64,000 nucleotides of DNA from a bacterium (GCA_030647655.1 JAUSJH010000006.1:3737-67736); one strand, 5' to 3'. Shown: positions 4,545-48,337, counted from the first letter of the stretch. Numbers and translations: made by a program. Notes: generated by a model not told the origin, from the sequence alone.

Positions 4545-5546
4545 TCAGGCGCGCAATTTTCTTGCAGAATCAATCTGCTGTCTCATGTGTTCTTCCGCCC
4601 GGGCGGCGGCTGCCGAGATCTTTCCGGAATCGATAGTCAGCGTTCCAACTACTTTATCGGCTCGCAGAAAAAGGTGTGGCTTGCCGCACTTTTCTAGAAG
4701 TTCATCACGCTCTTTCAGATTTTTATCACGTGAGAGCCACGCACTGCGCAATGGTCCCGGAAGTCTTCGGGAGAGAAGAGTGTCTCCGAGACGGGTCAAA
4801 CGATCTTGCGGGGTGTTTTTCGGAGAGTTGGTCAGGATCAAAATGTGAGTCGGGTCGTATCGCTTCAGAATATCTTGCAGAGCATCACGTGCCGCAGGTG
4901 AACCATCTGAATATCGCATCCCATCAATTTCGACAGGTATGGTGTACAGCGACGGAACTGCCGACGAAGCTTGTATTTTACGGATGATGTCACCTTCTTT
5001 ACCATTCAAGAGCGCGCTTTTCCCCGTCTCATACTTGACAGCGATAATGAGAAAATCAGGCCTACTATGTTTGATGTTCTCTACATTAAGCCGTTTGTTG
5101 CCTACCTCCCCTCTATAGAGCTGGCTTATAAACTCGACATCCATTCCGTATCCATCCGGAATTCGCTTCAGGCGTATGAAATCGGATGTCGTACATTCTT
5201 CTGAATATATGGTCGTTCCGAGGCGTGGGTCGCCCGAGAGTAACCACGCGCCCAAATGTGCGCCGGTAGAGTTACCGGCAATTACTTTAAATCCATTAGT
5301 CAGTCCGGCCTCGTGGATGGCCGTTATTTCACCTCCCCCGTACACGCCACTATTGCCTCCCGGGTCTATTAAAAGGGCGACGCGAATATTCGGATCTTCT
5401 CTGCCTTCGCGGACGTTTTGCGCCTGCTGTATTACCGCAGAGATAACGTCCGGATCACCCTCTGCTTCTATCCGACCGTCACGTTCTGGATCGTATGCTG
5501 TGTCCAGTCGGCTCCTCGGACGCAAGGAAAACCTATCCATGCACAA
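4545..5546 (-). CDS. patatin-like phospholipase family protein
   Basis: Gly-rich oxyanion region DPGGNSGVYGGG and GxSxG motif (AGNSTGAHLGAW); alpha/beta fold length about 330 aa. Confidence 0.55.
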   Translation of the reverse strand: MCMDRFSLRPRSRLDTAYDPERDGRIEAEGDPDVISAVIQQAQNVREGREDPNIRVALLIDPGGNSGVYGGGEITAIHEAGLTNGFKVIAGNSTGAHLGAWLLSGDPRLGTTIYSEECTTSDFIRLKRIPDGYGMDVEFISQLYRGEVGNKRLNVENIKHSRPDFLIIAVKYETGKSALLNGKEGDIIRKIQASSAVPSLYTIPVEIDGMRYSDGSPAARDALQDILKRYDPTHILILTNSPKNTPQDRLTRLGDTLLSRRLPGPLRSAWLSRDKNLKERDELLEKCGKPHLFLRADKVVGTLTIDSGKISAAAARAEEHMRQQIDSARKLRA

Positions 5547-5554
5547 ATGATACC

Positions 5555-7489
5555 CTACGCCAACGGTTGGTGTTCGATGTCCTCCTTCTTCTTCGGAGTG
5601 ATGCCGTTCGCGATGAGGATGTTCTCGAATTCCTGACGTTCGAGAGTTTCTACTTCTACGAGTTTTTGCGCGATTGCATTGAGCGCCTTACGGTGTTTTT
5701 TCATGATGGACTCGGCTTTTTTGTGCGCACCTTCGATGATGTGCTTTACCTCTGCATCTATCTGCCCCGCCACCGCTTCTGATTGCTCACTTCCCTCTAC
5801 GCCAGCCCCAAAGAGCGTGCGCCCCATCGCGGCATCAAATGCGATGGGTCCCAATTTTTCCGACATGCCGTAGCGAGCCACCATATCGCGTGCGAGCGCG
5901 GAGAGAACTTGCAGGTCGTTCGAAGCCCCCGTCGTGATGTCACCAAAGACCATCCGCTCGGCCACGTAGCCGCCCAAGGATACCGCGATGTCGTCGAGAA
6001 ATTCTTTGCGCGATTGCATTCTCTTGTCTTCAAACGGTAGCTTCAGCGTGTAGCCCGCCGCGCGACCGCGCGAGATGATGGAAATTTTGTGCACAGGGTC
6101 GGCATACGGTAGGACGGATGCGACAAGCGCGTGCCCTGCTTCGTGGTACGCAGTAATCTCTTTTTCTTTCTTGTTCAAGACGTGGCTCCGACGCTCCGGC
6201 CCGAGCATTACTTTTTCTATCGAGCGAATGAGGTCGTATTGCGTGAGCTCTTTCCTATTTTCGCGCGCTGCTAGTATCGCGCCTTCATTCATAAGGCTCG
6301 CGAGATCGGCACCGGAGAATCCCGGCGTGCGCTCCGCGATGACGACGAGATTCACGTCTGCGCCGAGCGGCTTCTTACGTGCATGTACTTTCAGAATTTC
6401 TTCGCGATCCTTGCGGTCGGGTAAATCTATCGTGACGCGCCGGTCAAATCGGCCGGGGCGCAGAAGGGCGGGGTCGAGCACGTCCGGCCTGTTGGAAGCC
6501 GCCATCACAATGACTTTTTCATTGGGCTCGAAGCCGTCCATTTCGACGAGTATCTGATTCAATGTCTGCTCGCGCTCGTCGTTGCCGCCGCCCACTCCGG
6601 TGCCGCGCACGCGCCCTACCGCGTCAATCTCGTCGATAAAGACGATTGCGGGCGCGGCTTTTTTGGCCGTCTGGAAGAGGTCACGCACGCGCGAAGCGCC
6701 TACCCCGACGAACATCTCGACGAATTCCGAGCCTGAAATGGAGAAGAACGGCACGCCTGCCTCTCCAGCAACCGCGCGTGCAAGCAGGGTCTTCCCCGTC
6801 CCCGGTGCTCCCATCAACAAGACGCCTTTGGGAATGCGCGCGCCTATCTGGATAAACTTCTTTGGATTCTTCAGGAAGTCCACAATTTCCAAGAGCTCGG
6901 ATTTCGCCTCTTTCGCGCCCGCAACGTCTTTAAACGTCACTTTCTGCACTTCATCTTCCGGATTCACGAGTCGTGCCATTGATTTGCCGAACGAGAATGC
7001 CTGCATCCCGCCGCCGCGCATCTGCCGCGAGAGGTACCAAATGACGCCAATAAGAAACATGATGGGCACCAGTATCGGAAGGAGGGTGAGCGCCCAAAAT
7101 CGTAAGCCGCCTTCGTCCTTAATCTCTATCGCCACCCCCGCCAATTTCTCCGGAGCGATCCCATAATCAGAAAGCGTCTGCACGAGCGAGCTCTCGCTTT
7201 CTTTGCGTGATGTTTTGGTAGTTTTGTCCGCATACGTTGCGGTGATGGAATCGCCAGAGACATCGAGCGACGTTATCGTGCCCGCGGTGATGTCTTGCGC
7301 TATCTGCGAGAGGGGTACAGTCTCGTCCTGTGTGGAGATGTATTGACGTATAAAAGAGTATCCAAACGAGAGCACGAGGAAGACGCCGAACGCCGCCGCG
7401 AGCTGAACCCAAATCGAAGGGCCGCCGGAGGGCTTCGGCTTCTCGCCTACCCGTGGCTTACGCGGGAGCTGTTTTTCAGGAATTGCCAT
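5555..7489 (-). CDS. ftsH: ATP-dependent zinc metalloprotease FtsH
   Basis: N-terminal TM helices, AAA Walker A GAPGTGKT, second region of homology, HEAGHALVA zinc motif; 644 aa. Confidence 0.92.
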
Positions 7490-10455: not shown

Positions 10456-10837
10456 GGGGGTGACTGGCTTCGACAAGGAAATCGACATATATGTGCGCGG
10501 GGCAAAGCTGTAGTTGCTTTTCAACCGCTACACAATTCAAGTGCGAACAAAGTAGCACGTGCGGTTCTCTCACCTATTCAGGTGTCTGACCTGCAGTTCG
10601 CTTACGCGTTAGCCTAAGCGACCGTCCGCCAGTTCAACGCTTGATCAGAGCTGAACGGGCGTCACTTCATTCAAGCACTGATGTCGTAGGTCCGGACGAT
10701 ATCTAAGATGAGGACTCGGCGGTATACGATTCTGTTCATCTCATACGTATGCCGCTTAAATCAAAAGATGTTCTACGCTTCGTAGACACGCATATACTGT
10801 TTTTCCTTGGACGGGGGTTCGATGCCCCCCACCTCCA
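10456..10837 (+). ncRNA. ssrA: tmRNA (transfer-messenger RNA)
   Basis: 5' GGGGGUGACUGG...CGACAAGG resembles tmRNA 5' ends. 3' end GGACGGGGGUUCGAUGCCCCCCACCUCCA gives a T arm and acceptor strand pairing with the 5' end (including G3:U70). An internal frame ends ...DLQFAYALA-stop, a plausible tag peptide. Lies 40 nt after the GIY-YIG gene downstream of smpB. Confidence 0.75.
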
Positions 10838-10886
10838 CTCGATTCGGCCATATAAAATGGCCTCACTCGTGGCAAGCCACAAAATC

Positions 10887-11112: not shown

Positions 11113-11805
11113 CTATCTTTTCCTCTCAAACGAAACCTCTTGCGGTCCGGCAGAGTACGGTGCGACCTGGTATGGTTGGAAAATAAAGGTTACTTTGCCT
11201 GCCGATATCAGGAACGAGCTGAAATTCTCAGGGTTGGAATTTGCTCCCTCGGCAAAAAAGGTCTCACCCAGCCTCTCTTTCAATTGTGCGCTCACCGCAA
11301 CGGAGACCTGCTGAGCGGTTAGCTTTATCATTTTGAACGCATCATCTTGGAGAAGCTGTTTGCCGCTTATGCGGTCAAAATTTAATCCACTGAAGAGCGA
11401 GTTCGGGTGTGCACCGCCAGTGTATTGCGAGATAACGAGCTTGAAGGAGACAACGTCGGGCCCGACATAGGGAGATTCGTACCGAACGGTGAGCTCATTT
11501 TGCGGAGAGCTCATGCCCGGAGGATTCGGCGGAAGTGTCTTGAATTCCGCGATAGTGTCGTTCACGATTTTTCCTACCTTGGCATCGATTGCGGAAATGC
11601 CAAACTTCGGATACTGCACGTCTATCGTGTACACAGACGTTTCTTCGTTCACATTCGCTGTCGTAATCTGCACACTTTGCGGAGTTGTCGTGGCGACACC
11701 TGTGTTTTGTGCCTGTAGCTCCGGCTGCACGCGTGTCGCGACGAAGTAGCCTATGCCAAGTGCAAGAGCAGCAACAACAATGTATCCCGCAAAGCGACCC
11801 ATGTC
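11113..11805 (-). CDS. DUF3298/DUF4163 domain protein (RsiV/PdaC-like), membrane-anchored
   Basis: N-terminal TM (YIVVAALALGIGYFV); C-terminal YTGGAHPNSL and surrounding region typical of DUF3298; start at internal Met. Confidence 0.55.
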   Translation of the reverse strand, partial: DMGRFAGYIVVAALALGIGYFVATRVQPELQAQNTGVATTTPQSVQITTANVNEETSVYTIDVQYPKFGISAIDAKVGKIVNDTIAEFKTLPPNPPGMSSPQNELTVRYESPYVGPDVVSFKLVISQYTGGAHPNSLFSGLNFDRISGKQLLQDDAFKMIKLTAQQVSVAVSAQLKERLGETFFAEGANSNPENFSSFLISAGKVTFIFQPYQVAPYSAGPQEVSFERKR

Positions 11806-11967
11806 TTGAGTATACCCCGTGAGATACGTCTGCCATATTTTGCTCCATAATCCGCCGAATATATATCTCACGGGGTATATCAAACCCGCCCGCTACGCGA
11901 CAAAGCCGCCCCTCGATCCGCCGATTGGCGAACTCAGGGCGGCTTTTGCACGATATCCAAAACCGAA

Positions 11968-12480
11968 TTACATCTCGATGCCCACCGTCACACTGACATT
12001 CCCGTCTCCAGTTTCAGCGATGTAGGCACCTACGGTGCGCGTGTCTTTCGTCGCCGAGACGACTGTGGCACCGGCCACGTTGGTCGTACCATGAATGGTC
12101 CAGCCCGCTGAGGTGAGTTGTTGTTTATAGTAATCTGCGACGCTCTGAACGGAAGCGTTCACGGTGTAGGAAACCGCGGAGCCCGATGTGCCGGTCTGCG
12201 GGTTCGAGGTGCCTGAGTAAACTATTGCCGCGCCCGTATAGTTTGCAGGAGCGTCCGATGGCCAATTCGCCGGCATACTTGCGCTGGTGCCGACCGTCAC
12301 GCTTCCATCGTTGTTGGTGTAAGTGGTTGAGCCGTCGGCATTCAGACTGCCGCCCGCCACGCCGCCTAACCCTCGCGTAACGAGCCACCCGAGGAGAAGC
12401 AAAATTACGATACCGCCGATAATGTACCACATCTTGTTTGAGCCCGATGTGGAAGGTGTGTTTGTGTTTCCTTCTGGCAT
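11968..12480 (-). CDS. hypothetical membrane-anchored Ser/Thr/Gly-rich protein
   Basis: One N-terminal TM helix (WYIIGGIVILLLLGWLV) then a low-complexity extracellular region; no family recognised. Confidence 0.4.
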   Translation of the reverse strand: MPEGNTNTPSTSGSNKMWYIIGGIVILLLLGWLVTRGLGGVAGGSLNADGSTTYTNNDGSVTVGTSASMPANWPSDAPANYTGAAIVYSGTSNPQTGTSGSAVSYTVNASVQSVADYYKQQLTSAGWTIHGTTNVAGATVVSATKDTRTVGAYIAETGDGNVSVTVGIEM

Positions 12481-14374: not shown

Positions 14375-14397
14375 TCGAGGTGCCTGAGGGAGAAACT

Positions 14398-14448
14398 GGG
14401 CGCGGCGGTGAGGAAATGTCCTCACTGCCGCGCCCGCTATTTTTTTGA
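14398..14448 (+). terminator. rho-independent terminator
   Basis: GGGCGCGGCGGUGAGGA-AAUG-UCCUCACUGCCGCGCCC followed by a run of seven U. Confidence 0.6.
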
Positions 14449-14502: not shown

Positions 14503-15303
14503 GTGGGCAGGTATACTCTTCACATGAATATGCGTTCTATTTTGCAAATTGGTGGTGGAATTGTGCTCGGAATTTTAATCGGCGTTTTCCTAGTGGGCCG
14601 AACTACAGCGCCTGTCTTTAAGAGCGTGTCAATTGCCTCCCCCGCGGCGTCTGCAGTATCTACGAATGCGCCCACAGCGGCTGGCACTTACCCCGTCGTG
14701 AAAGTCGTCGATGGCGATACGCTCGCTATCCTGATGAATGGAAAAAGCGTAACACTGCGACTTATTGGGCTCGACACGCCGGAGACGGTAGACCCGCGCA
14801 AGCCCGTGCAGTGCTTCGGGAAAGAGGCGTCGGAGGAAGCGAAAGAGGTGCTCGCCGGCAAGACGGTTCGCCTAGAAATGGACCCGTCGCAGGGAGAGCT
14901 TGATAAATACGGTCGCACGCTCGCGTATGTGTTCCTGTCAGACGGAATGTCTTTCAACAAGTACATGATATCCGAGGGCTACGGGCACGAATATACTTAT
15001 AATCTGCCGTACAAATACCAGAGCGAATTCAAAGCGGCAGAAAAACAAGCGCGTGAGGAGAAAAAAGGATTGTGGGGGCTAGAACAATCGCAAAGCGATT
15101 GTTCGCCCGAACCTGTCTCGCCGAGCGAGACAGGTTTTAGGGCAGATGGTACCCATGATTGTTCCCGCAACACTTATAACTGCTCAAGCTTCAAAACGCA
15201 GTCGGAAGCCCAGCGGGTGTTCGACCTCTGCGGCGGCACTGCGAACGATGTCCACAAACTCGACAGCGATAAGGATGGCAGGGTGTGCGAAAGCCTGCCC
15301 TGA
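14503..15303 (+). CDS. secreted thermonuclease (SNase-like) with C-terminal Excalibur calcium-binding domain
   Basis: N-terminal TM/signal; VVDGDTL...RLIGLDTPE...GRTLAYVF nuclease motifs; C-terminal DSDKDGRVCE (Excalibur DxDxDGxxCE). Confidence 0.75.
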   Translation: MGRYTLHMNMRSILQIGGGIVLGILIGVFLVGRTTAPVFKSVSIASPAASAVSTNAPTAAGTYPVVKVVDGDTLAILMNGKSVTLRLIGLDTPETVDPRKPVQCFGKEASEEAKEVLAGKTVRLEMDPSQGELDKYGRTLAYVFLSDGMSFNKYMISEGYGHEYTYNLPYKYQSEFKAAEKQAREEKKGLWGLEQSQSDCSPEPVSPSETGFRADGTHDCSRNTYNCSSFKTQSEAQRVFDLCGGTANDVHKLDSDKDGRVCESLP

Positions 15304-15306
15304 CAT

Positions 15307-16602
15307 GTGTTTTTCTCGGTATACTTAGAACACATGCGCAATCCCGACCTTTCTGTTGCTGTTACTATTGCGACCGCAGTATTCATAAGCGTGGCGGTGT
15401 TTTGTTTGGTCCCGCGTTTTGTGGATGCGGCCGACCTTCCTGCAACAAATCCGGCCGCTTGCAACCAACTATTCGATCTGCCCCAAAATACAATGACGCG
15501 GCCTGCGGACAAGGCACTCATGACCCCGGAAACATGCGATGCTTACTTGTTTCTGCTTCAAAGATACGCCCCGTCGGCCGGCGGCTGTAGCGCACGATAC
15601 GTTCAAAGAACTGCCGGTATCACGAGTCTGAACCCGGATTTTGCCATTCGATTGACAAAAATGTTTCGCGCTGCACCCATGAACATTATGATAATTTCCG
15701 CATATAGGAATCGGCAAGCGCAACAATGCGCAAACCCGAGAGTGACCGACTCAAATCACTCAAAAGGTTTGGCTGTTGACCTTGGATGGGACCAGAAGAG
15801 TTGTAGCTCCTCGGCCTGCCAATGGGTGCTGGCGAACGGCGCTACATTCGGAGTCGGAATTCCTATGCGCTATGGGCCAGAATGGAATCATGTCCAACCG
15901 AGAGGATCCGTGCAGGGTGGGCTTGGTCCCGGGGCGGATGCTTCACAAACTTCTTCGCAACTTTCTGACGCTATTCGCCAAGCTCTCGGCATGCAGCCGC
16001 CTCCACCGCCTCCACCGCCTCCACCGCCTCCTCCTCCACCTCCGATGCAGCCGCAACCAATACTTCCCCCGCAAACCGCGCTCCCCGCACAGCCGACACT
16101 TCCTGCACAACCCACGCTCCCCGCCCAGCCAACGATATTTTCTGAGCAGACACCAATATCAAGTCTGCTTACAATGAATCCAATCGTGATAACACCAACG
16201 ACCACGCGTAGTACAACAACATCAGATACCGGCAACGGTGATTCTATATTCGACCTGATTGAGCAGTATGTAAGTCCAGTGAGCGACTTCATCATTATCG
16301 GCACGGCAACATCCATCTCGCTCAATCCGGATACTGGTGATGCTCTGGTACTTGTAGCGACACGACCGACCTCCACCGCGAATATATTCCCAACGTCTTC
16401 TTCGGTGAATGTGCCCAACACGTTCACGTCCCAAGACCTCGCCAAAAGTCCCATTTCTTCCTCTGTACTCCGACAAAATTCGCTCGTGCTGAAGGTGCTT
16501 GAAGTGATGAAAAATACCCTGCTCTACGCGCTTAACTACCTGAAGCCGTTCGGGGGGAGGACGCCCGGAACAGTACCGCCAGGCAGTGTGTACGCGGATT
16601 AG
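15307..16602 (+). CDS. membrane-anchored VanY/peptidase M15-like zinc hydrolase with polyproline linker and conserved C-terminal domain
   Basis: IISAYRNRQAQQ ... SNHSKGLAVDL matches SxYRxxxxQ...SxHxxGxAxD of M15B/VanY; 17 consecutive Pro; C-terminal 150 aa about 80% identical to the paralog at 16662..17903. Confidence 0.6.
   Translation: MFFSVYLEHMRNPDLSVAVTIATAVFISVAVFCLVPRFVDAADLPATNPAACNQLFDLPQNTMTRPADKALMTPETCDAYLFLLQRYAPSAGGCSARYVQRTAGITSLNPDFAIRLTKMFRAAPMNIMIISAYRNRQAQQCANPRVTDSNHSKGLAVDLGWDQKSCSSSACQWVLANGATFGVGIPMRYGPEWNHVQPRGSVQGGLGPGADASQTSSQLSDAIRQALGMQPPPPPPPPPPPPPPPPMQPQPILPPQTALPAQPTLPAQPTLPAQPTIFSEQTPISSLLTMNPIVITPTTTRSTTTSDTGNGDSIFDLIEQYVSPVSDFIIIGTATSISLNPDTGDALVLVATRPTSTANIFPTSSSVNVPNTFTSQDLAKSPISSSVLRQNSLVLKVLEVMKNTLLYALNYLKPFGGRTPGTVPPGSVYAD
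15997..16048 (+). repeat. (CCGCCTCCA)n short tandem repeat encoding polyproline
   Basis: Direct 9-bp repeats inside the CDS; a shorter analogous repeat lies at 17349..17387 in the paralog. Confidence 0.6.
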
Positions 16603-16661
16603 AGAAAGGTTTTGCTCAGGGTCCGTGTCGAGTCTGAGCGTTTTTTCTGTATACTTCGTCT

Positions 16662-17903
16662 ATGAGTTCGACACGCGCTGAGATCGTTCTAAGAGGCGTA
16701 GTCCTTTTTCTGTTCCTGTTCCTACTAACAACTCCTTTATGGTCACAGGCAGCACTCACACCATGCACCAACGGTCATATAGCAACTCCGCAAGACGTTG
16801 CCGCCGGATACCCAGCTGGCGAGATTGTGTGTCCTCAAGATTATCAAACGACTGGTGTAACGGCTGATAGTGGCGCAGCAAAGCAATATTTAAATACGCA
16901 GTGGTGCCGTGGCGGGCCGTGTACGAAAAATGGTTACGTTTCCAATGTCACGCAACTTGATCCTAAATTCGCTATTTGCGCCGCAAATTTCTTAGAAAAG
17001 TACAAACAAAGAGACCCATCAGTTTGCATACGATGCGCATACCGGAGTCCTGAAATGCAACAAGCAATGTGTGGCTCAGGCTCATCTGGTTGCGCAGCCG
17101 CGAACCAATCAAATCATCCAAAGGGTATCGCAGTTGACTTAGTGCCGAGAAATTTGGATGACATGCAAGCCGCCGTACGCTCATTTTCCGGACTGAGACA
17201 TTTGACCCTTGTGAACGACAAGTGGCATGTCGAGGCCAACAATACGGGTACTTGTGGATTTGGAACTAATGGGGCAAACTCGGGCCCACCATCCGAAAAC
17301 TCACAATCCTCCTCTCTTGCCAACGCCATCCGCCAAGCGCTCGGCATGCCGCCGCCTCCCCCGCCTCCCCCGCCCCCACCTCCGCCATTACAACAGCAAC
17401 CGCAGACACTTCCACAGTCAGCACAACCAACTATTCCATCAGAGTCCCCACAAATCCCGCCCATATCGAGTCTTATATCTTCCACCTCCACGCCGCCACT
17501 TGTATCAACGAACATAAACACCAACGCTAATACAAATACAAACACCGACGCCACCTCCACGTTTGATCTGATTGAGCAGTATGCAAACCCAGTGAGCGAC
17601 TTCATAACTATCGGTACGGCAACATCCATCTCGCTCAATCCGGATACGGGTGACGCCATAGCCCTTAATGCGACAAGGCCGACCTCCACGGCGACAGGGA
17701 CAATCCTGACATCTCTTTCCGTGAATGTGCCCAACACGTTCACGTCCCAAGACCTCGCCAAAAGTCCCATTTCTTCCTCCCTACTGGGACCAAATTCGCT
17801 TGTGCTGAAGGTGCTCGCAGTGATGAAAAACACCCTGATTTACGCGCTTAACTACCTGAAGCCGTTCGGGGGGCGCACAACATCGCCAATGTACAGCGAA
17901 TAA
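16662..17903 (+). CDS. membrane-anchored VanY/peptidase M15-like zinc hydrolase paralog with polyproline linker
   Basis: IRCAYRSPEMQQ ... SNHPKGIAVDL; PPPPPPPPPPPP linker; shared C-terminal domain (FDLIEQY..PVSDFI.IGTATSISLNPDTGDA...NYLKPFGGRT). Confidence 0.6.
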   Translation: MSSTRAEIVLRGVVLFLFLFLLTTPLWSQAALTPCTNGHIATPQDVAAGYPAGEIVCPQDYQTTGVTADSGAAKQYLNTQWCRGGPCTKNGYVSNVTQLDPKFAICAANFLEKYKQRDPSVCIRCAYRSPEMQQAMCGSGSSGCAAANQSNHPKGIAVDLVPRNLDDMQAAVRSFSGLRHLTLVNDKWHVEANNTGTCGFGTNGANSGPPSENSQSSSLANAIRQALGMPPPPPPPPPPPPPLQQQPQTLPQSAQPTIPSESPQIPPISSLISSTSTPPLVSTNINTNANTNTNTDATSTFDLIEQYANPVSDFITIGTATSISLNPDTGDAIALNATRPTSTATGTILTSLSVNVPNTFTSQDLAKSPISSSLLGPNSLVLKVLAVMKNTLIYALNYLKPFGGRTTSPMYSE

Positions 17904-17949
17904 GGAGCCGTTGAGAAAATGCTGATAGGTGCTATAGTCCCCTCAACAA

Positions 17950-18552
17950 ATGGGATTCACTAAGTACACATCGCAGGCGGAAAAAGTGCGCGCACGAATG
18001 AACGAGGGCATCAAAAGCCCCGAGGTACGGGTAATCGGACCGGAGGGCGAGAATTTCGGAGTGCTTCCTATACGTGAGGCGCTCGCAAGAGCCCAAGCGG
18101 CGGGACTCGATCTCATCGAGATATCGCCGAATGCTCAGCCGCCGGTGTGCAAAATCACCGATTATGGCAAATTCAAATACGAGCAGAAGAAAAAAGACAA
18201 AGAGATAAAATCGAAAGCGCATGTTACGGAGACCAAAGTGACGCAGGTGAAGATCGGAACCTCGGAGCGCGACATGCAGATAAAGGCTGGCAAGGCGGCC
18301 GCGTGGCTTAAGGAGGGGCATCGTGTGCGCGTGGACCTTTTCTTGTGGGGCCGCTACAAATACATGGAGTATGAGTTCCTCAAAGAGCGGCTCGAGAGAT
18401 TCCTCGCGGTCATTCCCGAAGGCTTTAAAATAGCCGAGCCTATACAAAAGGGGCTCAAGGGGCTTTCGGTATCCATCGAGCGTGACACTTCAAAGAAAAC
18501 CGCACCGCAAAAGAAAGCACCGGAAATATCGGCATCGTCCGAAAAAGCTTGA
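17950..18552 (+). CDS. infC: translation initiation factor IF-3
   Basis: PEVRVIGPEGENFGVLPIREALARAQAAGLDLIEISPNAQPPVCKITDYGKFKYE... is full-length IF-3; the true start may be a non-ATG codon. Confidence 0.85.
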   Translation: MGFTKYTSQAEKVRARMNEGIKSPEVRVIGPEGENFGVLPIREALARAQAAGLDLIEISPNAQPPVCKITDYGKFKYEQKKKDKEIKSKAHVTETKVTQVKIGTSERDMQIKAGKAAAWLKEGHRVRVDLFLWGRYKYMEYEFLKERLERFLAVIPEGFKIAEPIQKGLKGLSVSIERDTSKKTAPQKKAPEISASSEKA

Positions 18553-22860: not shown

Positions 22861-24633
22861 TTAGTAGCAATACGAGGAGCAGTATCCTATCCCGAACATA
22901 GCTGTTGCTTGTCCTGCAGTTGCTTCGTTACCACTGAATAGTATTTGATAATTCTGAAAGTTTCCTCCTGCAAGTTCACTTGGTATCGTCCATGTGAAGC
23001 TGCCGCCTTGTAATCCTGAAGAATATGCGGTGCCAAGCGAACGGTCGATTGAGCCATATGGGATGCCGCCCAATAAGCGTAAAGAGTAACTCTTTACCCC
23101 CACATCAGAGCCTGTCCACGTAATACGGTATGTTTGACCGGCATACAGTTGCGCGCCAGGAGTCGGGAATGTGATTGTAACTGGCTGCACCAGATTGCTC
23201 AAAACTTTTACACGGACCGAATTGCTCGTCCCGTACTGATTCACGACGTACAGGTCATAGCTCTGCCCGACAATAAGCGACGAGGGGACATCCGCATTCA
23301 CCCGGGTCTCGCTCGTCCACGTCACGGTCGCCGGAATACCACTGAAGAACACTTTGGTTGAATCGACCGTAGCAAGATTATTTCCGTAAATCGACACTTC
23401 GCCACCCGCATCTACCTCCAAATTGCCGGCAGCTTTTGCGCTCGTTGAGATGATGACAGGATCGGTACTTGGAGCATTGACGACGGTGAAATAGCCATTG
23501 CTTTCATCGCGAACATTGCCCGTAGTGAGCGCGACCTTGTACTGCCCGCCCGGTAAGAGCTCACCTGTATTTGGACAGACGTAGCCCGGCCCCATATAGA
23601 ACCCGTACGTCCCGGCAGACACCGCAACAGTGCCGATGTTGCACGAGATTGTCGGGGACACAAGAAATACCCCGGCCGATCCTACGACTCCATGCGCTAT
23701 CCAATTCACTCGCAGATCTACATCCTTACCGCTACCGAAGACGAGGGATTCTCCGCCGTTCGGATACGTAATTGTGATAGACGAAGATGTGTCGACGACG
23801 TAATCAGATGTTTCGCCGACATCATAGCAGTAGCGTCCTTGCTCCCCCCTACAGCCGGCCGAATCGCTCCCCGTCCACAAATTCCCTTGTGAGGGCGCGA
23901 CGTCATTATCATAGTCGAGCGCGGAACTTCTGTTTTCGAGACTTGCACCGAGTTCATATCCTCTTCCCCCTCCGAGTTGATCATATGAATATGAGTTGTT
24001 ATCAGAGACATCTATCGGAACGGAGGCAATGTAGTCAGGCGCGAGAAAAGAGGTTGTCGGAGGATACATCCCCTTATCATCGTAGTAGAGCTCCAGCGCG
24101 AGTTGAAGCTGCTTGATATCGGCGATTCGACGCGCATCACGACCTTTTGCCCGCGCCTCGGCGGTATTCTCTGGAATTTCCATGCCGTAACAGAGCCGTG
24201 CCATCGCGGTGCGGGTGCGCGAGCCGACAAAGCCGTAGCCCGTTGAGTCCGGGTCGCCGGAAGATACGACGCCGTGCGCGGCTTGCCAGCGCTGCACCGC
24301 GCGCATCGTTGCAGGGCCGAAGTAGCCAGTGATGCGCGCTTCGGGATAGATTGAGGGGCCATACGAAGCGAGAAATTGTTGGAGTTTGGTAACCTCCCCG
24401 TTGGTGTCTGCATCGGTGTCGTCAACTGAAAGACTATTTGAAAGAGAGACGCACGCTGAAGTACTGGCGGGGGTGGTATTTGCGGGGACACCGAGTTGGG
24501 ACCTTAGAGCGGTGATTTGTGTTAGCAAACTCTGGACTTGAGCCTGCAAGTCGCTCAACGTATCAGAGGAAGCGAAGAGTGGTGACGCGAGAAAGAGAAG
24601 TCCGAGGCCGCCGAAGGCGATTTTTTTAAGCAT
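22861..24633 (-). CDS. secreted coiled-coil / peptidoglycan-binding-domain protein with pseudopilin (GspG-like) domain and beta-rich C-terminal region
   Basis: Signal peptide MLKKIAFGGLGLLFLASPLFA, heptad region LSDLQAQVQSLLTQITALRSQL, PG_binding_1-like VTKLQQFLASYGPSIYP...YFGPATMRAVQRWQ, then RDARRIADIKQLQLALELYYDDKGMYP (type IV pilin/pseudopilin globular-domain signature) without the N-terminal pilin TM helix. Confidence 0.6.
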   Translation of the reverse strand: MLKKIAFGGLGLLFLASPLFASSDTLSDLQAQVQSLLTQITALRSQLGVPANTTPASTSACVSLSNSLSVDDTDADTNGEVTKLQQFLASYGPSIYPEARITGYFGPATMRAVQRWQAAHGVVSSGDPDSTGYGFVGSRTRTAMARLCYGMEIPENTAEARAKGRDARRIADIKQLQLALELYYDDKGMYPPTTSFLAPDYIASVPIDVSDNNSYSYDQLGGGRGYELGASLENRSSALDYDNDVAPSQGNLWTGSDSAGCRGEQGRYCYDVGETSDYVVDTSSSITITYPNGGESLVFGSGKDVDLRVNWIAHGVVGSAGVFLVSPTISCNIGTVAVSAGTYGFYMGPGYVCPNTGELLPGGQYKVALTTGNVRDESNGYFTVVNAPSTDPVIISTSAKAAGNLEVDAGGEVSIYGNNLATVDSTKVFFSGIPATVTWTSETRVNADVPSSLIVGQSYDLYVVNQYGTSNSVRVKVLSNLVQPVTITFPTPGAQLYAGQTYRITWTGSDVGVKSYSLRLLGGIPYGSIDRSLGTAYSSGLQGGSFTWTIPSELAGGNFQNYQILFSGNEATAGQATAMFGIGYCSSYCY

Positions 24634-24742: not shown

Positions 24743-25915
24743 TTAGTTGGAAATCGTAAACACCCCACTTTCGGCGAGAGTGTCCATTCCTCTGCTGATG
24801 CGAATCTTGTATCTGCCCGGTACAACAGTATTTTCCTTGTTGATAGTACCAGCACCGAGATAGTTGAGCGTTATGCTGGCAGTCCATCCACTGAATTCTG
24901 CTTGCGAACCGTTGTTTAAGCTGCCAACTATTCCTGCTTGAGAACCATCTTCCCGTATAAGATTCAGAACTACCTTATCGCCCTCAGGCCATGTAGCGAT
25001 GACAGGTTCACTCAGCTTAATTATATGCGCCTCGCCGGTCTTCCAACGGTCGCCGGGTATCGGCGAAAGAACGGTAATGCCGTTTTGAGAACTCTCCGTA
25101 ACCGTAAAGGAAACGGAATTACTCCACTTCGACCATGGTTTTACGGAAATCTCGTAGACGCCTGGAGACACAGAAAAATATGATGCGCATGGAAGTCCTG
25201 AATAAGAAGTGTCCTGCTTACAGAACGATGACTGTATTGTTGTCACGATAGTAGTATCGTCGCTACCAGTCCTGTCCCCGTACATAACACCGCTAGAGTA
25301 ATCCGGAGGGTTAAATTCCGTTGCAATACGAGCATTCAGATCACCTTCAAAACCGCGCAGATTTTTGCCTTTGATAGTAATCTTTGTGCCGATAGGACCG
25401 CTCGAAGGAGTTACGCTGTAAATGACGGGGTCTAAAGTGCTATTGCTGGTCGAACCTGAGCCGCATGATTCTGTGATCTTTGCCCGTGTCATCGGACCGA
25501 CGCCGCTTTTGGGTGTTACGAAACCCATGCCGTGGGCTTTTTGCCAACGCATGACCGCCTGCGCGGTGAGATTTCCATAATAGCCAGTGATAGGACCCGT
25601 GTAAACCCCCTGATCTGTGAGAAACTGTTGCAGACGTGACACTTCATCATCGTGCAGTGAGTCGGTAGAACCTATGATTAAATTTCGCGTAATCATCGGG
25701 CACGTCCCCGCACCCGTCGGATTAGACGGGGCAGTTTTCATGGCGGCCATCTGCGCTTTCAACTGGGTGATTTGTGCGAGCAACCCTTGAATTTGCGATT
25801 GTAGTTCCTCAATCGGATTCGTCGTGGCAAGTGCGGGTGTGGCAAGAAAAAGAATTCCCAAAACCGGAAGCGCGAGTTTTTTAAGCATGATGTTTGCCTT
25901 AAGGGTAATGCACAA
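24743..25915 (-). CDS. secreted coiled-coil / peptidoglycan-binding-domain protein
   Basis: Signal MLKKLALPVLGILFLATPALA, IEELQSQIQGLLAQITQLKAQMAAM, VSRLQQFLTDQGVYTGPITGYYGNLTAQAVMRWQ PGBD-like; paralog of 22861..24633. Confidence 0.6.
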   Translation of the reverse strand: MCITLKANIMLKKLALPVLGILFLATPALATTNPIEELQSQIQGLLAQITQLKAQMAAMKTAPSNPTGAGTCPMITRNLIIGSTDSLHDDEVSRLQQFLTDQGVYTGPITGYYGNLTAQAVMRWQKAHGMGFVTPKSGVGPMTRAKITESCGSGSTSNSTLDPVIYSVTPSSGPIGTKITIKGKNLRGFEGDLNARIATEFNPPDYSSGVMYGDRTGSDDTTIVTTIQSSFCKQDTSYSGLPCASYFSVSPGVYEISVKPWSKWSNSVSFTVTESSQNGITVLSPIPGDRWKTGEAHIIKLSEPVIATWPEGDKVVLNLIREDGSQAGIVGSLNNGSQAEFSGWTASITLNYLGAGTINKENTVVPGRYKIRISRGMDTLAESGVFTISN

Positions 25916-25940: not shown

Positions 25941-28766
25941 CTATTGATACAACGATGCGGGCAATTCGGGTTCGAGTGGGTTTGGCGCGGGCTTTTTGCC
26001 GTAGGCGGCGTCGAATTTGCGGCGAATGTCTGCTTCTACCTCTTCTCTATCTTTCCCATACATTTTGTATGAAAGTTCTTTCATCGTGTCTATCTTGCTG
26101 TAATCCATGTGAGGAAGATCGGCAGTTTGGATAGTGAATGGTCGCGCAGGGACGCCATTGACGAGAAGCGCCAAAACCGCGGTTCTGTTCGGCAGATTCT
26201 CAAGATCCTGCTGCGTGAATATCGGCGTAAATTGTTTCTCCAAAAACTCGGCATCTTGCGTGCCTACACGGAACGACGCTTTGGTGCCCACATTTCCGAT
26301 GACCGCGTCGCGGATGTCTTCTTCGAGCTGCGCAATAAATTGATGCGCTATCGTGAGTGAGAGCTTGTATTTGCGGGCCTCGGAGAGAATGGTCGCGATT
26401 GATGGTGTAGCGAAGTTCTGGAACTCGTCGATATAGAGATAAAAGACGGGCAAAAGGTCGCCCCTCGTGTCAACACGCGAGAATGCCGCCTGCAGAAATT
26501 TTGAGACGAGAATAAGACCGAGGAGCGAGGTGTTTCGATCGCCCAAGCGACCTTTCGAGAGATTGGCGAGAAAAATCTTTTTCTTATCCATTATCTCGCG
26601 GAAATTGAACGCGGATTTTTCCTGGCTAACGATAGGCCGCATGATGTCGTTGGTGAGAAAGACGTCGAACTTGCTGGTGATGTAGGGCGCCACGTTCTCA
26701 AGGCTGGGGTCACCTTGCGCCTGTTCGGCAATTTTGCGCCAGAATTGCACGATTATTGGGTTATTGCAGTGGCTAAGCTTTAAATTGCGGAACGCGGTAT
26801 CGGCGAATACACGCGGTATCTCGACGAAAGTACTTCCTGTGTCCGGATCCTCGACGACGAGCTGCACCGCGTTGCGGTAGTATTGCTCGAACATCGGGCC
26901 GAAGGCCTCCGGCACGTCGGCGTAGAGTTTTCTGAAAATGCCATACACTTCGTCCACCACGAATGTCTTCATTTCCGGCTTCGAGCGGTCGTACTCGAGC
27001 ATGTTGAGGCCCATCGGCCGTGCTGTGTATGCAGGGTCAAAATAGATGACGTCTTTCATGCGCTCGGGCGGGATACACGCGAGCACATCCTCGATGTCGT
27101 TGCCGTGCGGATCGATGAAGGCAACTCCTTCGCCGTTCTTTATATCCTGAATAATCATATTCTTGATGAGCCCTGTCTTTCCGGTACCTGTCTGTCCGAT
27201 GACATACGCATGGCGGAGGCGATCCGACGCCCCGAATCGCACCGGCGTCTCGTCGGCGCCGTACTTGTTGATACCGATGGTGATGCCGTCGGCCGGAGTC
27301 TCGACTGGCGCAGGCGCTTGTTTGGCGAAGCTGCGCTTCAACTCGCGTGAGGTCGTGAGGCGCTCGGCGGTGAAATGGAATATCGAGGTCACTTCCGCTA
27401 GCGAGAGCGGCATCGATATCCCGTGGTCGAACTCTCGGTATGTAAAGTCGCGCAGAAAGTTGGCAAGTCCCCAACTTCCGACTTCTTTGAAGATTAAATG
27501 ATTGCCTTTTGCATCATCGTACTGGTTGAAAGGCGCCTCCAGATTACTCAAAAGTTCTTCCGCACGGGCTTTTGTCGGCGCGGACGTGACGAGGCGGATG
27601 GAGACGGGTGCTATGCGCGTTTTTACCTTCTTAGTTACCTCTTCGGTCACCACCTGATCGCTCGAGCGGCGGAATTGTTTTTCCACTTCCATCTCATACT
27701 CCTTCGCCATGAATATTTGTTTTGCCATTGCATAGACCGCTTCTCCAATTTCTGTTTCAGGCACTTTGATGGCCTTGCGGAAATTTTTCCCCTTCTCAAG
27801 TTCCCGAATAATCTTCTTATAGTGATGATTGTACCGATCGCCTTCGGTCGAGACGGTAATCTGTAGCGCCGCCCCCTCCCCGTGTTTTGCTATTTTCGCG
27901 AACGCCGCAAGCAAGACGTTCATCGGATCGTGCTCAAAAAGCTCGGGGGTTTTGAGGGGAAGCGAGGGATGGTCGGCAAGAGTCGCATAGGCGGCAGCAT
28001 GCTCGCCTTCGTAGTTGAAAATGTTGTAATCACCGCGAGATTCGGACATACGCGCGTTGGGAAATACGGATGATATAAGGCGCTCCGCAAGGATCTTTTT
28101 TGCCCGCGGCACGGCGAGGTACAAAAATGCTTCTTCGCTCCCCTCTTGCACTGCGATCTCGAGTGAGAATCCTTCGTGCTTGTCGATGAGGGAGGTGAGG
28201 CCTGCGTAAAGCTGTTCGGAAGATGAGAGGAGCTGTTCGAGCTTGTGCTGTTGATTCTCCTGTTTGTCACCCTCACCAAATGCCTGCGGCTGTATCTCGA
28301 AGAGAACCATGTTGAGTGCGCGGCGAACTTTCTCGGGCGCCTTCATACCGTGGTCCGGCAAGCCTTCTGCGATGTAGCGCACCAAGGCGCGATGCACGTC
28401 GTCCTCGAGGTGCGGATTCTTCATGCGTGCCGCGACCGAAAGTGCGTTCCTTATACCGCTCTGCTGGACCAGTCGCAGTATCTCGTCCACCTGTTTATCG
28501 TGCGTCTCCGGCTCAAGTTTCAAGACCGTGCGCACAATGTCGTGCTCGGCCATAACAACCGTTTCGTGGAGGACGGTCGCCGCAGGAGTGTCCGCATAGG
28601 CGGCAACTTCACGGCGGGCGATACGGTCTTTTTCAAAACGGTTGTCCGGCGCTTCCATCTCGGCCTCTTTCTCGCGCACCCGCTCGCGCAAATAGGCAAG
28701 CTCCTCTTCAGGTGATTTGAATTTCTCTAGAGCCGCATTACGCGGCTTCTCCATCATGGGAGGCAT
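25941..28766 (-). CDS. large P-loop NTPase, VirD4/TraG/TraD (type IV coupling protein)-like ATPase domain with about 500-aa N-terminal extension
   Basis: Walker A GQTGTGKT followed by AFIDPHG / YFDPAY (DP motifs of T4SS-DNA_transf family), Walker B-like YIDEFQNF, RKYKLSLTIAHQFIAQL (TraG-like Q motif); 941 aa, no N-terminal TM helices. Confidence 0.55.
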   Translation of the reverse strand: MPPMMEKPRNAALEKFKSPEEELAYLRERVREKEAEMEAPDNRFEKDRIARREVAAYADTPAATVLHETVVMAEHDIVRTVLKLEPETHDKQVDEILRLVQQSGIRNALSVAARMKNPHLEDDVHRALVRYIAEGLPDHGMKAPEKVRRALNMVLFEIQPQAFGEGDKQENQQHKLEQLLSSSEQLYAGLTSLIDKHEGFSLEIAVQEGSEEAFLYLAVPRAKKILAERLISSVFPNARMSESRGDYNIFNYEGEHAAAYATLADHPSLPLKTPELFEHDPMNVLLAAFAKIAKHGEGAALQITVSTEGDRYNHHYKKIIRELEKGKNFRKAIKVPETEIGEAVYAMAKQIFMAKEYEMEVEKQFRRSSDQVVTEEVTKKVKTRIAPVSIRLVTSAPTKARAEELLSNLEAPFNQYDDAKGNHLIFKEVGSWGLANFLRDFTYREFDHGISMPLSLAEVTSIFHFTAERLTTSRELKRSFAKQAPAPVETPADGITIGINKYGADETPVRFGASDRLRHAYVIGQTGTGKTGLIKNMIIQDIKNGEGVAFIDPHGNDIEDVLACIPPERMKDVIYFDPAYTARPMGLNMLEYDRSKPEMKTFVVDEVYGIFRKLYADVPEAFGPMFEQYYRNAVQLVVEDPDTGSTFVEIPRVFADTAFRNLKLSHCNNPIIVQFWRKIAEQAQGDPSLENVAPYITSKFDVFLTNDIMRPIVSQEKSAFNFREIMDKKKIFLANLSKGRLGDRNTSLLGLILVSKFLQAAFSRVDTRGDLLPVFYLYIDEFQNFATPSIATILSEARKYKLSLTIAHQFIAQLEEDIRDAVIGNVGTKASFRVGTQDAEFLEKQFTPIFTQQDLENLPNRTAVLALLVNGVPARPFTIQTADLPHMDYSKIDTMKELSYKMYGKDREEVEADIRRKFDAAYGKKPAPNPLEPELPASLYQ

Positions 28767-29179: not shown

Positions 29180-30460
29180 TCAAGAAAGGGACTTTGCCCC
29201 GATGTCGCGGCGGAAATGCATGCCTTCGAAATGGATTTTGCCGACCGCTTCGTAGGCACGGTCGAGCGCCTGCTTGAGCGTGCCGCCGACCGCGGAAACC
29301 CCAAGTACTCTGCCGCCGTTTGTATACAAGGTTGAACCTCGTAAAATAGTGCCTGCATGAAATACGACGACACCTTCCACCTTTTCGGCTTCTTCAATTC
29401 CCGTTATCGGGAACCCCTTCTGATACGCGTCCGGATAACCGCCGGATGCCAAGACGATATTTGCCGCAAAGCCGCGATGCCATTCCACCGATTTTTTTAC
29501 CACATCTACCGTGCTATCGACACACGCGTCGAGAAGGTCGAGAAGGTCGGTTTTGAGAAGACGCATGTATACCTGACATTCAGGATCGCCAAAACGTGCG
29601 TTGTATTCCAAAACCTTGAGACCGTCAAGCGTCACTTTGAGACCGGGATACAGAAGTCCCTGGAACTGTATGCTGCGTTTTTTGAGCGCTTCGAAGGTCG
29701 GGATAACGACCGCGCTGTCGATGCCGGTCATCACTTGTGAGGTGACCCACGGCACTGGAGCGATAGCGCCCATCCCGCCGGTATTTTTGCCTTCGTCTCC
29801 ATCAAGCGCGCGCTTGTGATCTTGGGAAGAAGGAAACAGTACGTGCGTAATCCCGTCTGTAAGAGCGTGTATGGATATCTCGGGACCATCGAGATATTCC
29901 TCTATCACAACCTCGTTACCGGCATCTTTGTGTATTTTCTCAATCATTATCTCGGTAATCGCATGCTCGGCCTCTTCGAAACTTCTGCAGATGTACACTC
30001 CCTTCCCTAGCGCAAGCCCACTCGCTTTTATGACGATTGGAAAGCCATGCGTGCGCACATGCGCGAGCGCCGTGTGCGGCTCGCTAAAGAGCGCAAACTC
30101 GGCGGTCGGGATTTTTGCCTCCTGCATCAATTGTTTTGAAAAAGCTTTCGAGCCTTCGATTTGTGCTGCTTCTTTGCTTGGGCCCCAGATGCGCAGTCCG
30201 TGCGACTTGAACACATCAACGATGCCGCCGACCAGCGGATCATCGGGACCGACAACGGTGAGGCCGATTCTCTTCTCTTCCGCGAATCTAGCCAACTTTT
30301 CGAATTCCATCACACTGATATCTACGTTCTCGGCGAGCATTCCTGTACCGCCATTCCCCGGCGCCACGTAGAGTTTGCCAACGCGCGGTGACTGCTTTAA
30401 TTTCCACGCGAGCGCGTGTTCTCTCCCCCCGCTGCCGATTATGAGAACGTCAGTTGCCAT
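29180..30460 (-). CDS. purD: phosphoribosylamine--glycine ligase
   Basis: MATDVLIIGSGGREHALAWKL... and ATP-grasp region; full length. Confidence 0.85.
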   Translation of the reverse strand: MATDVLIIGSGGREHALAWKLKQSPRVGKLYVAPGNGGTGMLAENVDISVMEFEKLARFAEEKRIGLTVVGPDDPLVGGIVDVFKSHGLRIWGPSKEAAQIEGSKAFSKQLMQEAKIPTAEFALFSEPHTALAHVRTHGFPIVIKASGLALGKGVYICRSFEEAEHAITEIMIEKIHKDAGNEVVIEEYLDGPEISIHALTDGITHVLFPSSQDHKRALDGDEGKNTGGMGAIAPVPWVTSQVMTGIDSAVVIPTFEALKKRSIQFQGLLYPGLKVTLDGLKVLEYNARFGDPECQVYMRLLKTDLLDLLDACVDSTVDVVKKSVEWHRGFAANIVLASGGYPDAYQKGFPITGIEEAEKVEGVVVFHAGTILRGSTLYTNGGRVLGVSAVGGTLKQALDRAYEAVGKIHFEGMHFRRDIGAKSLS

Positions 30461-46149: not shown

Positions 46150-46150
46150 A

Positions 46151-47809: not shown

Positions 47810-47845
47810 AACTCCCGAAACAACGGTAAGGTGCCGCGGCGCAAT

Positions 47846-48331: not shown

Positions 48332-48337
48332 ATTGTA

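Follow-up and report, generated by a model that had tools for sequence, protein, structure and literature searches.

What could tie a nuclease gene to two neighbouring peptidase genes whose products differ in their catalytic domains and agree in their C-terminal ends? The question is raised by positions 14503 to 17903 of a 64,000-nucleotide stretch of bacterial DNA (GCA_030647655.1 JAUSJH010000006.1:3737-67736; hereafter, the window means this whole stretch), in which three consecutive plus-strand open reading frames (ORFs) are present, as a first-pass annotation had stated. Named homologues come from metagenome-assembled genomes of Candidatus Kaiserbacteria and other Patescibacteria, and the source is an uncultured, ultra-small bacterium that resembles Kaiserbacteria, within the Patescibacteria (Candidate Phyla Radiation, CPR). 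The answer towards which we lean, with moderate confidence, is that the second and third genes encode exported peptidoglycan peptidases with exchangeable heads and a common docking tail, in a lineage-conserved envelope-enzyme locus. The coordinates of the genes and of their parts are given in Table 1.

Are the heads peptidases at all? Taken singly, the two proteins stay below the Pfam cut-offs, those of PF02557 and PF13539 included, against which the VanY/M15 assignment of the first-pass annotation was to be checked; taken with their relatives, which do match VanY and M15_4, they are predicted to be divergent members of the known M15 superfamily. Proteins encoded at the same locus in related genomes pass the thresholds (gene 1 of locus L009 scores 29.7 on M15_3, cut-off 23.2; L016 scores 35.6 on VanY, cut-off 25), and in a set of 29 aligned homologues VanY is matched by 10 (E<=0.01, best E=5e-9), M15_3 by eight and M15_4 by seven. 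A profile of the family matches the VanY structures 5zhf, 6a6a and 5hnm at E ~7e-8. When peptidase 1 is modelled with AlphaFold2 (AF2) using the family alignment, residues ~70-200, i.e. the M15 core, have a predicted local distance difference test score (pLDDT) above 90; the 11 best PDB matches returned by Foldseek are all M15 enzymes, among them LdcB (E=9e-5), LysECD7, VanX, the T5 and RB49 peptidases, ChiX and a Streptomyces DD-peptidase, and the fold is that of the LAS/Hedgehog-DD-peptidase group. The motifs quoted earlier from the two proteins (SAYRNRQAQQ...SNHSKGLAVDL and CAYRSPEMQQ...SNHPKGIAVDL) are there as described, and their spacing agrees with M15, fold and residues both being supported at the family level. 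The Arg of S-x-Y-R, the His and Asp of SxHxxGxAxD and the last His are invariant columns in the 29 sequences, and each window protein contains a zinc triad H-x6-D...H, an acid three residues before the last His and the Arg of the SAYR or CAYR motif (numbering in Table 1); the roles of the ExxH or DxxH acid and of the Arg are those which we take over from the VanX and LdcB structures. Weak PHROG matches to endolysins and to a tape-measure protein are confined to the M15 core. Both proteins look like active zinc peptidases acting on peptidoglycan, and the two heads would belong to different M15 subtypes: their cores are 29% identical, peptidase 1 having the ExxH of VanY and LdcB and peptidase 2 the DxxH of the M15C enzymes.

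The rest of the two proteins follows one plan. In peptidase 1, a signal peptide, a pre-domain, the M15 core, a short helix, a run of 16 prolines and a P/Q/T-rich linker precede the tail; peptidase 2 has a signal peptide, a different pre-domain and a different core, then the helix LANAIRQALG, 13 prolines, a linker and the tail. The tails comprise the last ~115-125 aa and are 75-81% identical, so that the near-identical 150-aa domain first described has to be shortened and its likeness lowered. That description called the domain one of no listed function and proposed to establish its distribution by alignment and database search; the distribution is wide. A tail profile run against 1.84 billion cluster representatives (50% identity clusters) retrieved 354 proteins at E<=1e-3, of which 209 also stayed within E<=1e-10, and the match was always C-terminal. 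An M15 head is present in 126 of the 127 full-length members and HxxGxAxD in 125, the two exceptions being P0173, with the variant HxxAxAxD, and a protein with an unrelated N-terminus, maybe a gene-call chimera. Because 125/127 carry the motif, the tail goes specifically with M15 heads and is no general-purpose module. Neither Pfam nor NCBIfam has a model that matches it, the PDB sequences gave nothing below E=0.85, the cluster records offer no product name beyond 'hypothetical protein', and neither the family nor the locus is described in the literature that was searched, on Patescibacteria peptidoglycan hydrolases, Kaiserbacteria nucleases and concerted evolution of autolysins. A scan of viral contigs did not find the tail, so an origin from phage endolysins is unsupported. 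We regard the tail as a real, unnamed and probably new family, which appears restricted to this lineage of Patescibacteria; that it is found on M15 heads exclusively and at a single site of the chromosome would also be new.

What the tail might look like is less easily said. Conserved are a short helix (TSTFDLIxxY), the segments NPVSDSIDIG and IxLNPDTSD, a variable S/T/G stretch, and QQTFTSxDL, in which T68 and F69 do not vary across 106 sequences. A terminal helix of 24 residues bears a heptad-like stripe of hydrophobic positions (90/93/94/97/101/104-105/108/111) and is followed by L-x-P-F-G-G, 5-12 further residues and the end aromatic-x-E/D-COOH. In the full-length protein, AF2 places only the helices of the tail with confidence (pLDDT <50 for 323-390; predicted template modelling score, pTM, 0.44); given the tail alone, with 106 sequences, it is confident of two helices, the terminal one at pLDDT 92-94, for a pTM of 0.26. 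The terminal helix is amphipathic, with a hydrophobic moment of 0.32-0.38 (p 0.01-0.04 against shuffles). A transmembrane tail-anchor was considered for this helix and rejected, its mean hydrophobicity being 0.2-0.3 with K, E and N inside. On these models, the tail is either a domain that AF2 cannot fold as a monomer or a module that becomes ordered on binding or oligomerization.

How the two copies came to have the same tail can be read from five genomes that contain two copies. Inside one genome, the two heads have 25-32% identity and the two tails 72-95%; across genomes, the values are 50-76% for orthologous heads and 33-62% for their tails. The extreme case between genomes is that of the first genes of L003 and L011, with heads at 76% and tails at 37%. 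Optional inserts in the linker follow the same rule, being shared by the pair within a genome (a cysteine module in L003, a second, Cys-flanked insert in L001). At the DNA level, the two window genes share two tracts (Table 1), and in L011 a 300-nt tract is 100% identical between the two genes. Synonymous divergence (dS) of the tails is 0, 0.37 (the window), 0.59 and 0.85 within four genomes and saturated in the fifth; between genomes it is at least 1.5 or saturated. Since tail dS is lower within genomes than between them, repeated gene conversion has homogenized the two copies; with a nonsynonymous divergence (dN) of 0.10 in the window, i.e. a dN/dS of ~0.27, the tail is under purifying selection.

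The heads, for their part, are replaced. At least five head subtypes are found next to infC on very similar tails, and between relatives whose infC products are 96-99% and whose nucleases 82-90% identical, the heads are only 23-36% identical and belong to different subtypes. The clearest comparison is that of two single-copy loci, L015 and L019 (infC 97%, nuclease 86%, tail 78%, head 30% identical): a blastn alignment of the two takes in the nuclease gene, reaches about 430 nt into the peptidase gene, leaves ~400 nt (1407-1812) inside the M15 gene unaligned, and resumes at 1812 to continue through infC. As the gap is confined to the core while the flanks align, the locus is a mosaic with breakpoints on either side of the catalytic core. 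From one close relative to another it is the core that is exchanged, and the nuclease gene, pre-domain, linker, tail and infC around it remain homologous; recombination may have replaced alleles, or tandem copies may have arisen, been lost and undergone conversion. It is the combination of tail gene conversion with replacement of a core cassette that would be new. The two processes, the most informative features of the locus, do not figure in the first-pass annotation.

The linker attracted attention at first for its prolines. The runs, announced as 17 and 12 residues long, count 16 and 13; they are encoded, as had been said, by repeats, which prove to be perfect 9-bp units, and since these are in frame, slippage would alter the length of the run but not the frame. 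A polyproline II helix rises by ~3.1 A per residue, which gives ~50 A for 16 prolines. A long polyproline rod is not a feature of the family, as 122 members reveal: their linkers measure 83-255 aa (median 136) and consist of P for 15%, S for 12%, T for 10% and Q for 9%, the longest Pro run varies from 1 to 16, peptidase 1 of the window being the extreme, and runs of at least four prolines occur in 41%. What is conserved is an extended low-complexity spacer rich in P, Q, S and T. The helix at the junction of head and linker (residues 216-226 of the 431-aa protein in the AF2 model of peptidase 1) recurs as a loose pattern in 80 of the 127 full-length sequences. Two optional inserts were seen in the spacer. 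The first, a six-cysteine module (C-x-P-Q-x-Y-C-x5-Y-Y-R-x-S-x-C-x-D-Q-x-Y-Q-x-C-x2-G-C-x4-C), is found in 42% of the 122 members between the Pro/Gln stretch and the tail (e.g. L003 8001-10816, P0008, P0012, P0027, P0037), is absent from both window proteins, and is common to both copies within a genome. The second, '(N/T)xxECFTSLNPPTIAxPGTVxQSQCLTNA' with two Cys, occurs in L001 7858-10732, P0008, P0032, P0053 and P0079, and again in both tandem copies of one genome (L001).

At the other end of the proteins, both paralogues had been given N-terminal transmembrane segments. We read these as probable Sec signal peptides that are cleaved off, not as anchors, because in both proteins and in their homologues a basic n-region leads into a hydrophobic stretch, which is followed by a site of the AxA type. 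Peptidase 1 begins with MRNPDLS, followed by a 19-residue h-region and FVDA/AD (the stroke marks the presumed cut), peptidase 2 with MSSTRAEIVLRG, an h-region and WSQA/AL; AxA-like sites recur at the N-termini of homologues, preceded by the same two elements.

The product of the first gene would be an exported, Ca-dependent nuclease of the staphylococcal nuclease (SNase) type. It opens with a hydrophobic segment, which may be an anchor or a cleaved signal; a low-complexity Ala/Ser/Pro-rich spacer leads to the SNase domain, and an Excalibur-like tail closes the protein. The SNase assignment made at first stands: the protein scores 92.7 bits on PF00565 (cut-off 21, E=2.3e-26), and contains motifs such as RLIGLDTPE and YGRTLAYV, in which we presume the Ca-site and catalytic residues D21, R35, D40, T41, E43 and R87 (S. 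aureus numbering) to lie. Domain, motifs and probable export are as in the NucI-like thermonucleases, whose model is matched at E=3.6e-37 with 127 bits, well under its NCBIfam equivalog cut-off of 250. As for the Excalibur tail, the DSDKDGRVCE loop is present, but the profile PF05901 is matched with 18.6 bits, below its cut-off of 22. Such a tail was not found in any of the eight orthologous nucleases compared, which stop ~10-15 residues past the SNase domain, and would for that reason be a peculiarity of the window genome, one of nine. In L009, the nuclease (4700-6004) is called at 434 aa, against 205 aa in the near-identical L010; a fusion was considered and rejected in favour of an over-extended start call.

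The locus lies on the chromosome and not in a mobile element, and its flanks are housekeeping genes. Upstream of the nuclease gene is threonine synthase (minus strand); downstream are infC, rpmI and rplT, then genes for a methyltransferase, a SLOG/LDcluster4 protein, a beta-CASP RNase and NDK, and further on two PG_binding_1+TIG proteins and a 941-aa ATPase resembling type IV coupling proteins (T4CP); FtsH, tmRNA, SecY, EF-Tu and similar genes are found elsewhere in the window, which contains exactly two copies of the tail. Synteny was examined in five Kaiserbacteria-like contigs, 14 further metagenome loci and four more; a search for related loci seeded by an alignment of seven sequences recovers close relatives only. 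The window infC is 83-92% identical to that of most related loci and 73-77% to that of the two most distant. In every locus with flanks present, SNase comes first, followed by one or two M15/tail genes and by infC(-rpmI-rplT), with infC starting ~45-110 nt past the last M15/tail gene. Of the 14 metagenome loci, three (L012, L015, L019) have a single M15/tail gene between SNase and infC and two (L013, and L017 on the same contig as L011) have two, the remainder ending at a contig edge. Even the distant members P0078, P0079 and P0178 keep the order, with the wider neighbourhood changed.

Two groups of neighbours deserve mention beside the locus. Upstream, a PdaC/DUF3298 protein (11113-11883, minus strand) is accompanied by a 170-aa membrane-anchored protein (11968-12480, minus strand) that has no Pfam match and at whose position AF_1845-like proteins stand in relatives; this pair adjoins the SNase-M15 locus again in most related contigs. 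Downstream, two adjacent, secreted-looking proteins combine PG_binding_1 with TIG/Ig-like (and Kre9_KNH) domains (22861-24633 and 24743-25915, both minus strand); they are candidate wall-associated partners of the tail.

Each gene of the locus appears to have its own start signal. A TATACT box followed after 4-9 nt by ATG occurs nine times in the window (3429, 11814(-), 13445(-), 14512, 15320, 16650, 28778(-), 52688 and 59718(-)) against 0.83 expected, a number that none of 100 shuffles reached, and the upstream-extended ORFs of homologues read '...LLYTS-M...', i.e. have the same box at the same place. The true starts are likely the three ATG codons at 14524, 15334 and 16662, each of which stands 6-8 nt after such a box, and the mRNAs of the three genes are probably leaderless; the pattern suggests that genes of the lineage are commonly transcribed without a leader, from a -10 box immediately in front of the start codon. 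Given one box per gene and a hairpin followed by U6 between the peptidase genes (missed by a simple terminator scan), the three genes probably do not form one operon but are transcribed separately.

Table 1. Features of the nuclease-peptidase locus, in window coordinates. Residues of peptidase 1 are numbered in the 422-aa protein; add 9 for the 431-aa numbering.
Feature	Position	Strand	Remarks
Terminator-like hairpin, strong	14397-14436	+	18 pairs, then T-run; closes the upstream unit, just before the nuclease gene
Nuclease ORF	14503-15303	+	opens at GTG 14503
TATACT, -10-like box	14512-14517	+	6 nt before nuclease ATG 14524; also in the list of promoter-like sites
Nuclease gene	14524-15303	+	259 aa from ATG
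Nuclease N-terminal hydrophobic segment	14539-14595	+	
SNase domain	14689-15075	+	DGDT, RLIGLDTPE and YGRTLAYV motifs
Excalibur-like Ca-binding tail	15169-15300	+	last 44 residues; PF05901
DSDKDGRVCE	15262-15291	+	DxDxDGxxCE loop
Peptidase 1 ORF	15307-16602	+	opens at GTG 15307; 431 aa
TATACT box	15320-15325	+	8 nt before peptidase 1 ATG 15334
Peptidase 1 gene	15334-16602	+	422 aa from ATG
Peptidase 1 h-region and FVDA/AD	15355-15435	+	probable signal-peptidase I site, read by eye
Peptidase 1 M15 core	15619-15900	+	SAYR (R125), SNHSKGLAVD (H142, D149), EWNH (E183, H186)
Short helix LSDAIRQALG	15961-15990	+	peptidase 1, head-linker junction
Run of 16 Pro	15997-16044	+	CCGCCTCCA x3.9 (15997-16031, 100% matches) plus CCT/CCA/CCG codons
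Peptidase 1 tail module	16243-16599	+	FDLIEQY helix, PVSDFIIIG, LNPDTGD, NTFTSQDL, amphipathic helix, VYAD-COOH end
DNA repeat tracts	16249-16562, shared with 17562-17878	+	133 nt at 84%, 175 nt at 89%
Peptidase 1 amphipathic helix	16477-16557	+	NSLVLKVLEVMKNTLLYALNYLKPFGG
Terminator-like hairpin and U6	16613-16646	+	between the peptidase genes; minimum free energy -20.3 kcal/mol, z = -2.2
TATACT box	16650-16655	+	6 nt before peptidase 2 ATG 16662
Peptidase 2 ORF and gene	16662-17903	+	413 aa
Peptidase 2 M15 core	16947-17237	+	CAYR (R128), SNHPKGIAVD (H152, D159), DKWH (D186, H189)
Run of 13 Pro	17349-17387	+	CCGCCTCCC x2.6 (17352-17374, 100% matches)
Peptidase 2 tail module	17556-17900	+	81% identical to peptidase 1 tail

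How might such proteins work? We picture both as Sec-exported zinc enzymes that cut peptidoglycan and have the fold of the M15 peptidases (VanY/LdcB/phage L-Ala-D-Glu peptidase). The plan they share begins with a signal peptide, a small pre-domain, the M15 core and a helix, goes on with a spacer rich first in Pro/Gln and then in Ser/Thr/Asn, and closes with a tail of ~115 aa. The tail would serve as a docking or assembly module, fixing both enzymes to one partner in the envelope of the producer, or joining the two by way of the terminal helix; the reach of the head would depend on the spacer, and the head would decide which stem-peptide bond is cut. The weakest step concerns the target: foreign peptidoglycan (of a host, of prey or of necromass) may be attacked, the nuclease scavenging the DNA released. 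We place a foreign target slightly ahead of the producer's own wall, because heads turn over in near-identical backgrounds and because the pairing with a secreted nuclease seems constant. The first-pass annotation had thought of a host envelope and its DNA being degraded away from the membrane, which the turnover of heads and the constant nuclease would fit.

Several points weigh against this reading. The window proteins score 13-17.5 bits on the M15 models of Pfam (VanY PF02557, M15_3 PF08291, M15_4 PF13539 and M15_2 PF05951), the gathering cut-offs of which are 23-27, and stay under threshold for all four families, as they do for the VanX-like and MepK-like models of NCBIfam. Cleavage of the signal peptides was judged by eye. 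The docking role of the tail is suggested by conservation and position, and AF2 gives the tail no compact fold, either alone or in the full-length protein. The perfect tract of L011 comes from a single metagenome assembly, and head diversity could be due to birth and death of tandem copies and not to allelic replacement. Finally, the place of the locus, beside infC-rpmI-rplT and near genes for PdaC/DUF3298 and PG_binding_1 proteins, fits a housekeeping function equally well.

Such a function is the best of the alternatives, possible though in our view unlikely. The two enzymes would then mature or recycle the producer's own wall, as LD- or DD-carboxypeptidases or endopeptidases like LdcB, VanY and MepK, kept by the tail on the envelope of the cell that makes them, and the adjacent nuclease would have nothing to do with them beyond synteny. 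In all loci examined, the genes sit at a core-genome place between thrC or PdaC-like genes and infC-rpmI-rplT, and the PG_binding_1 and PdaC/DUF3298 genes nearby imply that the organism has a wall to maintain; the closest structural matches are LdcB and VanY; no tail copy was seen on viral contigs; and with a promoter-like box for each gene, co-regulation with the nuclease is not required. On the other hand, the chemistry of the organism's own stem peptides should not differ between genomes with infC at 96-99% identity, yet this is where the heads diverge, the number of M15/tail copies varies from one to two, and the nuclease remains adjacent even where the wider neighbourhood has changed.

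A bolder version of the foreign-target idea, which we hold to be doubtful, is that of a polymorphic 'warhead': an epibiotic or scavenging CPR cell would show one or two interchangeable M15 heads at its surface, on long spacers, by means of a docking or oligomerization module of a new type, and the adjacent nuclease would harvest the DNA set free. Recombination would swap the heads so that they suit whatever peptidoglycan chemotype the present host or prey has, and conversion of the tail would keep every head compatible with a fast-evolving docking partner.

Two further proposals give the tail another role. It might be a C-terminal sorting or attachment signal in the manner of the C-terminal domains of the type IX secretion system or of sortase substrates, cleaved or covalently linked by a dedicated machine; its position at the extreme C-terminus, its highly conserved end and its restriction to one lineage would fit, but we consider this very improbable, for general sorting signals carry diverse cargo and the cargo here is M15 in 126/127, an N-terminal Sec signal is already there, the helix is amphipathic and the end acidic with neither the transmembrane segment nor the basic end of sortase, PEP-CTERM or PGF-CTERM signals, and no conserved processing enzyme was seen next to the locus in the five Kaiserbacteria-like contigs. 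Just as improbable, to our mind, is that the tail is an autoinhibitory or regulatory pro-region whose QTFTSxDL and NPVSDSIDIG segments fold back on the M15 site until a trigger arrives: the coupling of the tail exclusively to M15 heads, the invariance of T68/F69 in an otherwise poorly structured region and a linker long and flexible enough to permit back-folding speak for it, yet one tail would have to serve heads that are 23-36% identical and have different catalytic motifs, and the full-length AF2 model confidently places no structure of the tail beyond its helices. That the likeness of the tails reflects a recent local tandem duplication with no wider family, the outcome that would have undone the first description, can practically be dismissed in spite of the 81% similarity being confined to the window pair (35-59% to tails elsewhere), for the tail recurs in 354 clusters, one- and two-copy loci with different heads exist in many genomes, and window heads only 29% identical make gene conversion, not a young duplication, the probable source of the similarity.

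To come back to the exported, docked peptidases that we favour, how do they compare with known systems? VanY and LdcB, DD- and LD-carboxypeptidases, are extracytoplasmic zinc enzymes acting on peptidoglycan stem peptides. These M15B peptidases of MEROPS share S-x-Y-R, SxHxxGxAxD and ExxH with peptidase 1 and give the closest profile and fold matches (5zhf, E=7e-8; 4jid/4mph, E ~1e-4); identity is only ~15-19%, the window proteins fall below the gathering score of Pfam VanY, and their pre-domain, ~110-aa linker and ~115-aa tail have no counterpart in VanY and LdcB. Peptidase 2 shares D-x-x-H with the M15C endopeptidases (T5 EndoT5, RB49, LysECD7, Ply500, ChiX); its top matches, all weak and sub-threshold, are Peptidase_M15_2/MepK and endolysin PHROGs of phages, and the fold matches include 8q2g, 23ri, 5opz and 2mxz. 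Whereas the phage enzymes are single-domain, the window proteins have a signal peptide and a tail and no phage context. The overall logic, an enzymatic head, a linker, a C-terminal targeting module and the exchange of heads, is known already from the autolysins and endolysins of Gram-positive bacteria, which have wall-binding domains such as LysM, SH3b, CWB or SLH and in which domain shuffling is familiar; unlike the modules used there, our tail matches no known wall-binding domain, is not predicted to be compact, and is bound to one head superfamily and, in the loci examined, to one chromosomal position. An extended Pro segment between a functional and an interaction domain is likewise found in the periplasm-spanning spacers of the TonB type, but there is no homology, the Pro run of our family is not conserved (1-16), and the orientation differs, as the anchor is probably C-terminal here. 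With polymorphic toxin and effector loci, finally, the genes share the cassette-like replacement of a catalytic module with breakpoints inside the gene; the polarity is reversed, a variable N-terminal core preceding a constant C-terminus, no secretion genes are adjacent in the loci examined, and there is no immunity gene, since infC follows directly.

The T4CP-like gene downstream calls for a word, as it lies ~8 kb from the peptidases in conserved synteny. Its 941-aa product (25941-28766, minus strand) matches TraG-D_C, TrwB_AAD_bind and DUF87, with DUF8128 in orthologues, and is of the VirD4/TraG kind; no virB4 is visible in the 64-kb window. Most patescibacterial T4CP genes are far from virB4, and the VirB1-like hydrolases of the type IV secretion systems of Patescibacteria carry M23 or LysM domains and no M15/tail (PMC12102498). 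A VirB1-like role for the peptidases was rejected for these two reasons, the make-up of the known hydrolases and the absence of virB4 nearby, with only this T4CP-like gene 8 kb off.

Other observations in the window are added for completeness. Two antisense ORFs, 15888-16454 and 17114-17833 (minus strand; 188 and 239 aa), were rejected as genes; their poly-Gly runs only reflect the Pro-rich linkers on the other strand and are artefacts of composition. The C-rich coding sequence there also accounts for the strongest GC skew of the window (-0.19 at 16001-18000). A complete purD (phosphoribosylglycinamide synthetase; 29180-30502, minus strand) is a gene of de novo purine synthesis in a CPR-like genome, and its presence bears on the idea that the nuclease serves nucleotide scavenging. 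Three consecutive large ORFs at 44698-49732 (minus strand; 483, 552 and 464 aa) have no Pfam match at E<=1e-4. A YcaO cyclodehydratase homologue is encoded at 56218-57780 (minus strand), and a 560-aa protein at 53798-55480 (plus strand) joins a phosphoribosyltransferase-like N-terminus to a PQQ/beta-propeller. The tmRNA (114.8 bits) lies at 10456-10840 (plus strand), with smpB near the equivalent position in related loci, and one tRNA at 2191-2264 (minus strand).

How CPR bacteria handle their own walls and those of others is largely unknown, and most of their secreted proteins are unannotated. Against this background, the locus defines an unnamed module of ~115 aa, apparently specific to M15 enzymes, and offers what looks like a clean natural example of evolution at the level of modules at a fixed core-genome position. 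The head alleles, the specificity of each for a bond and the partner of the tail offer a way of testing which hosts or walls an uncultured lineage is specific for and, if foreign peptidoglycan is indeed the target, the head allele could mark host range in metagenomes.

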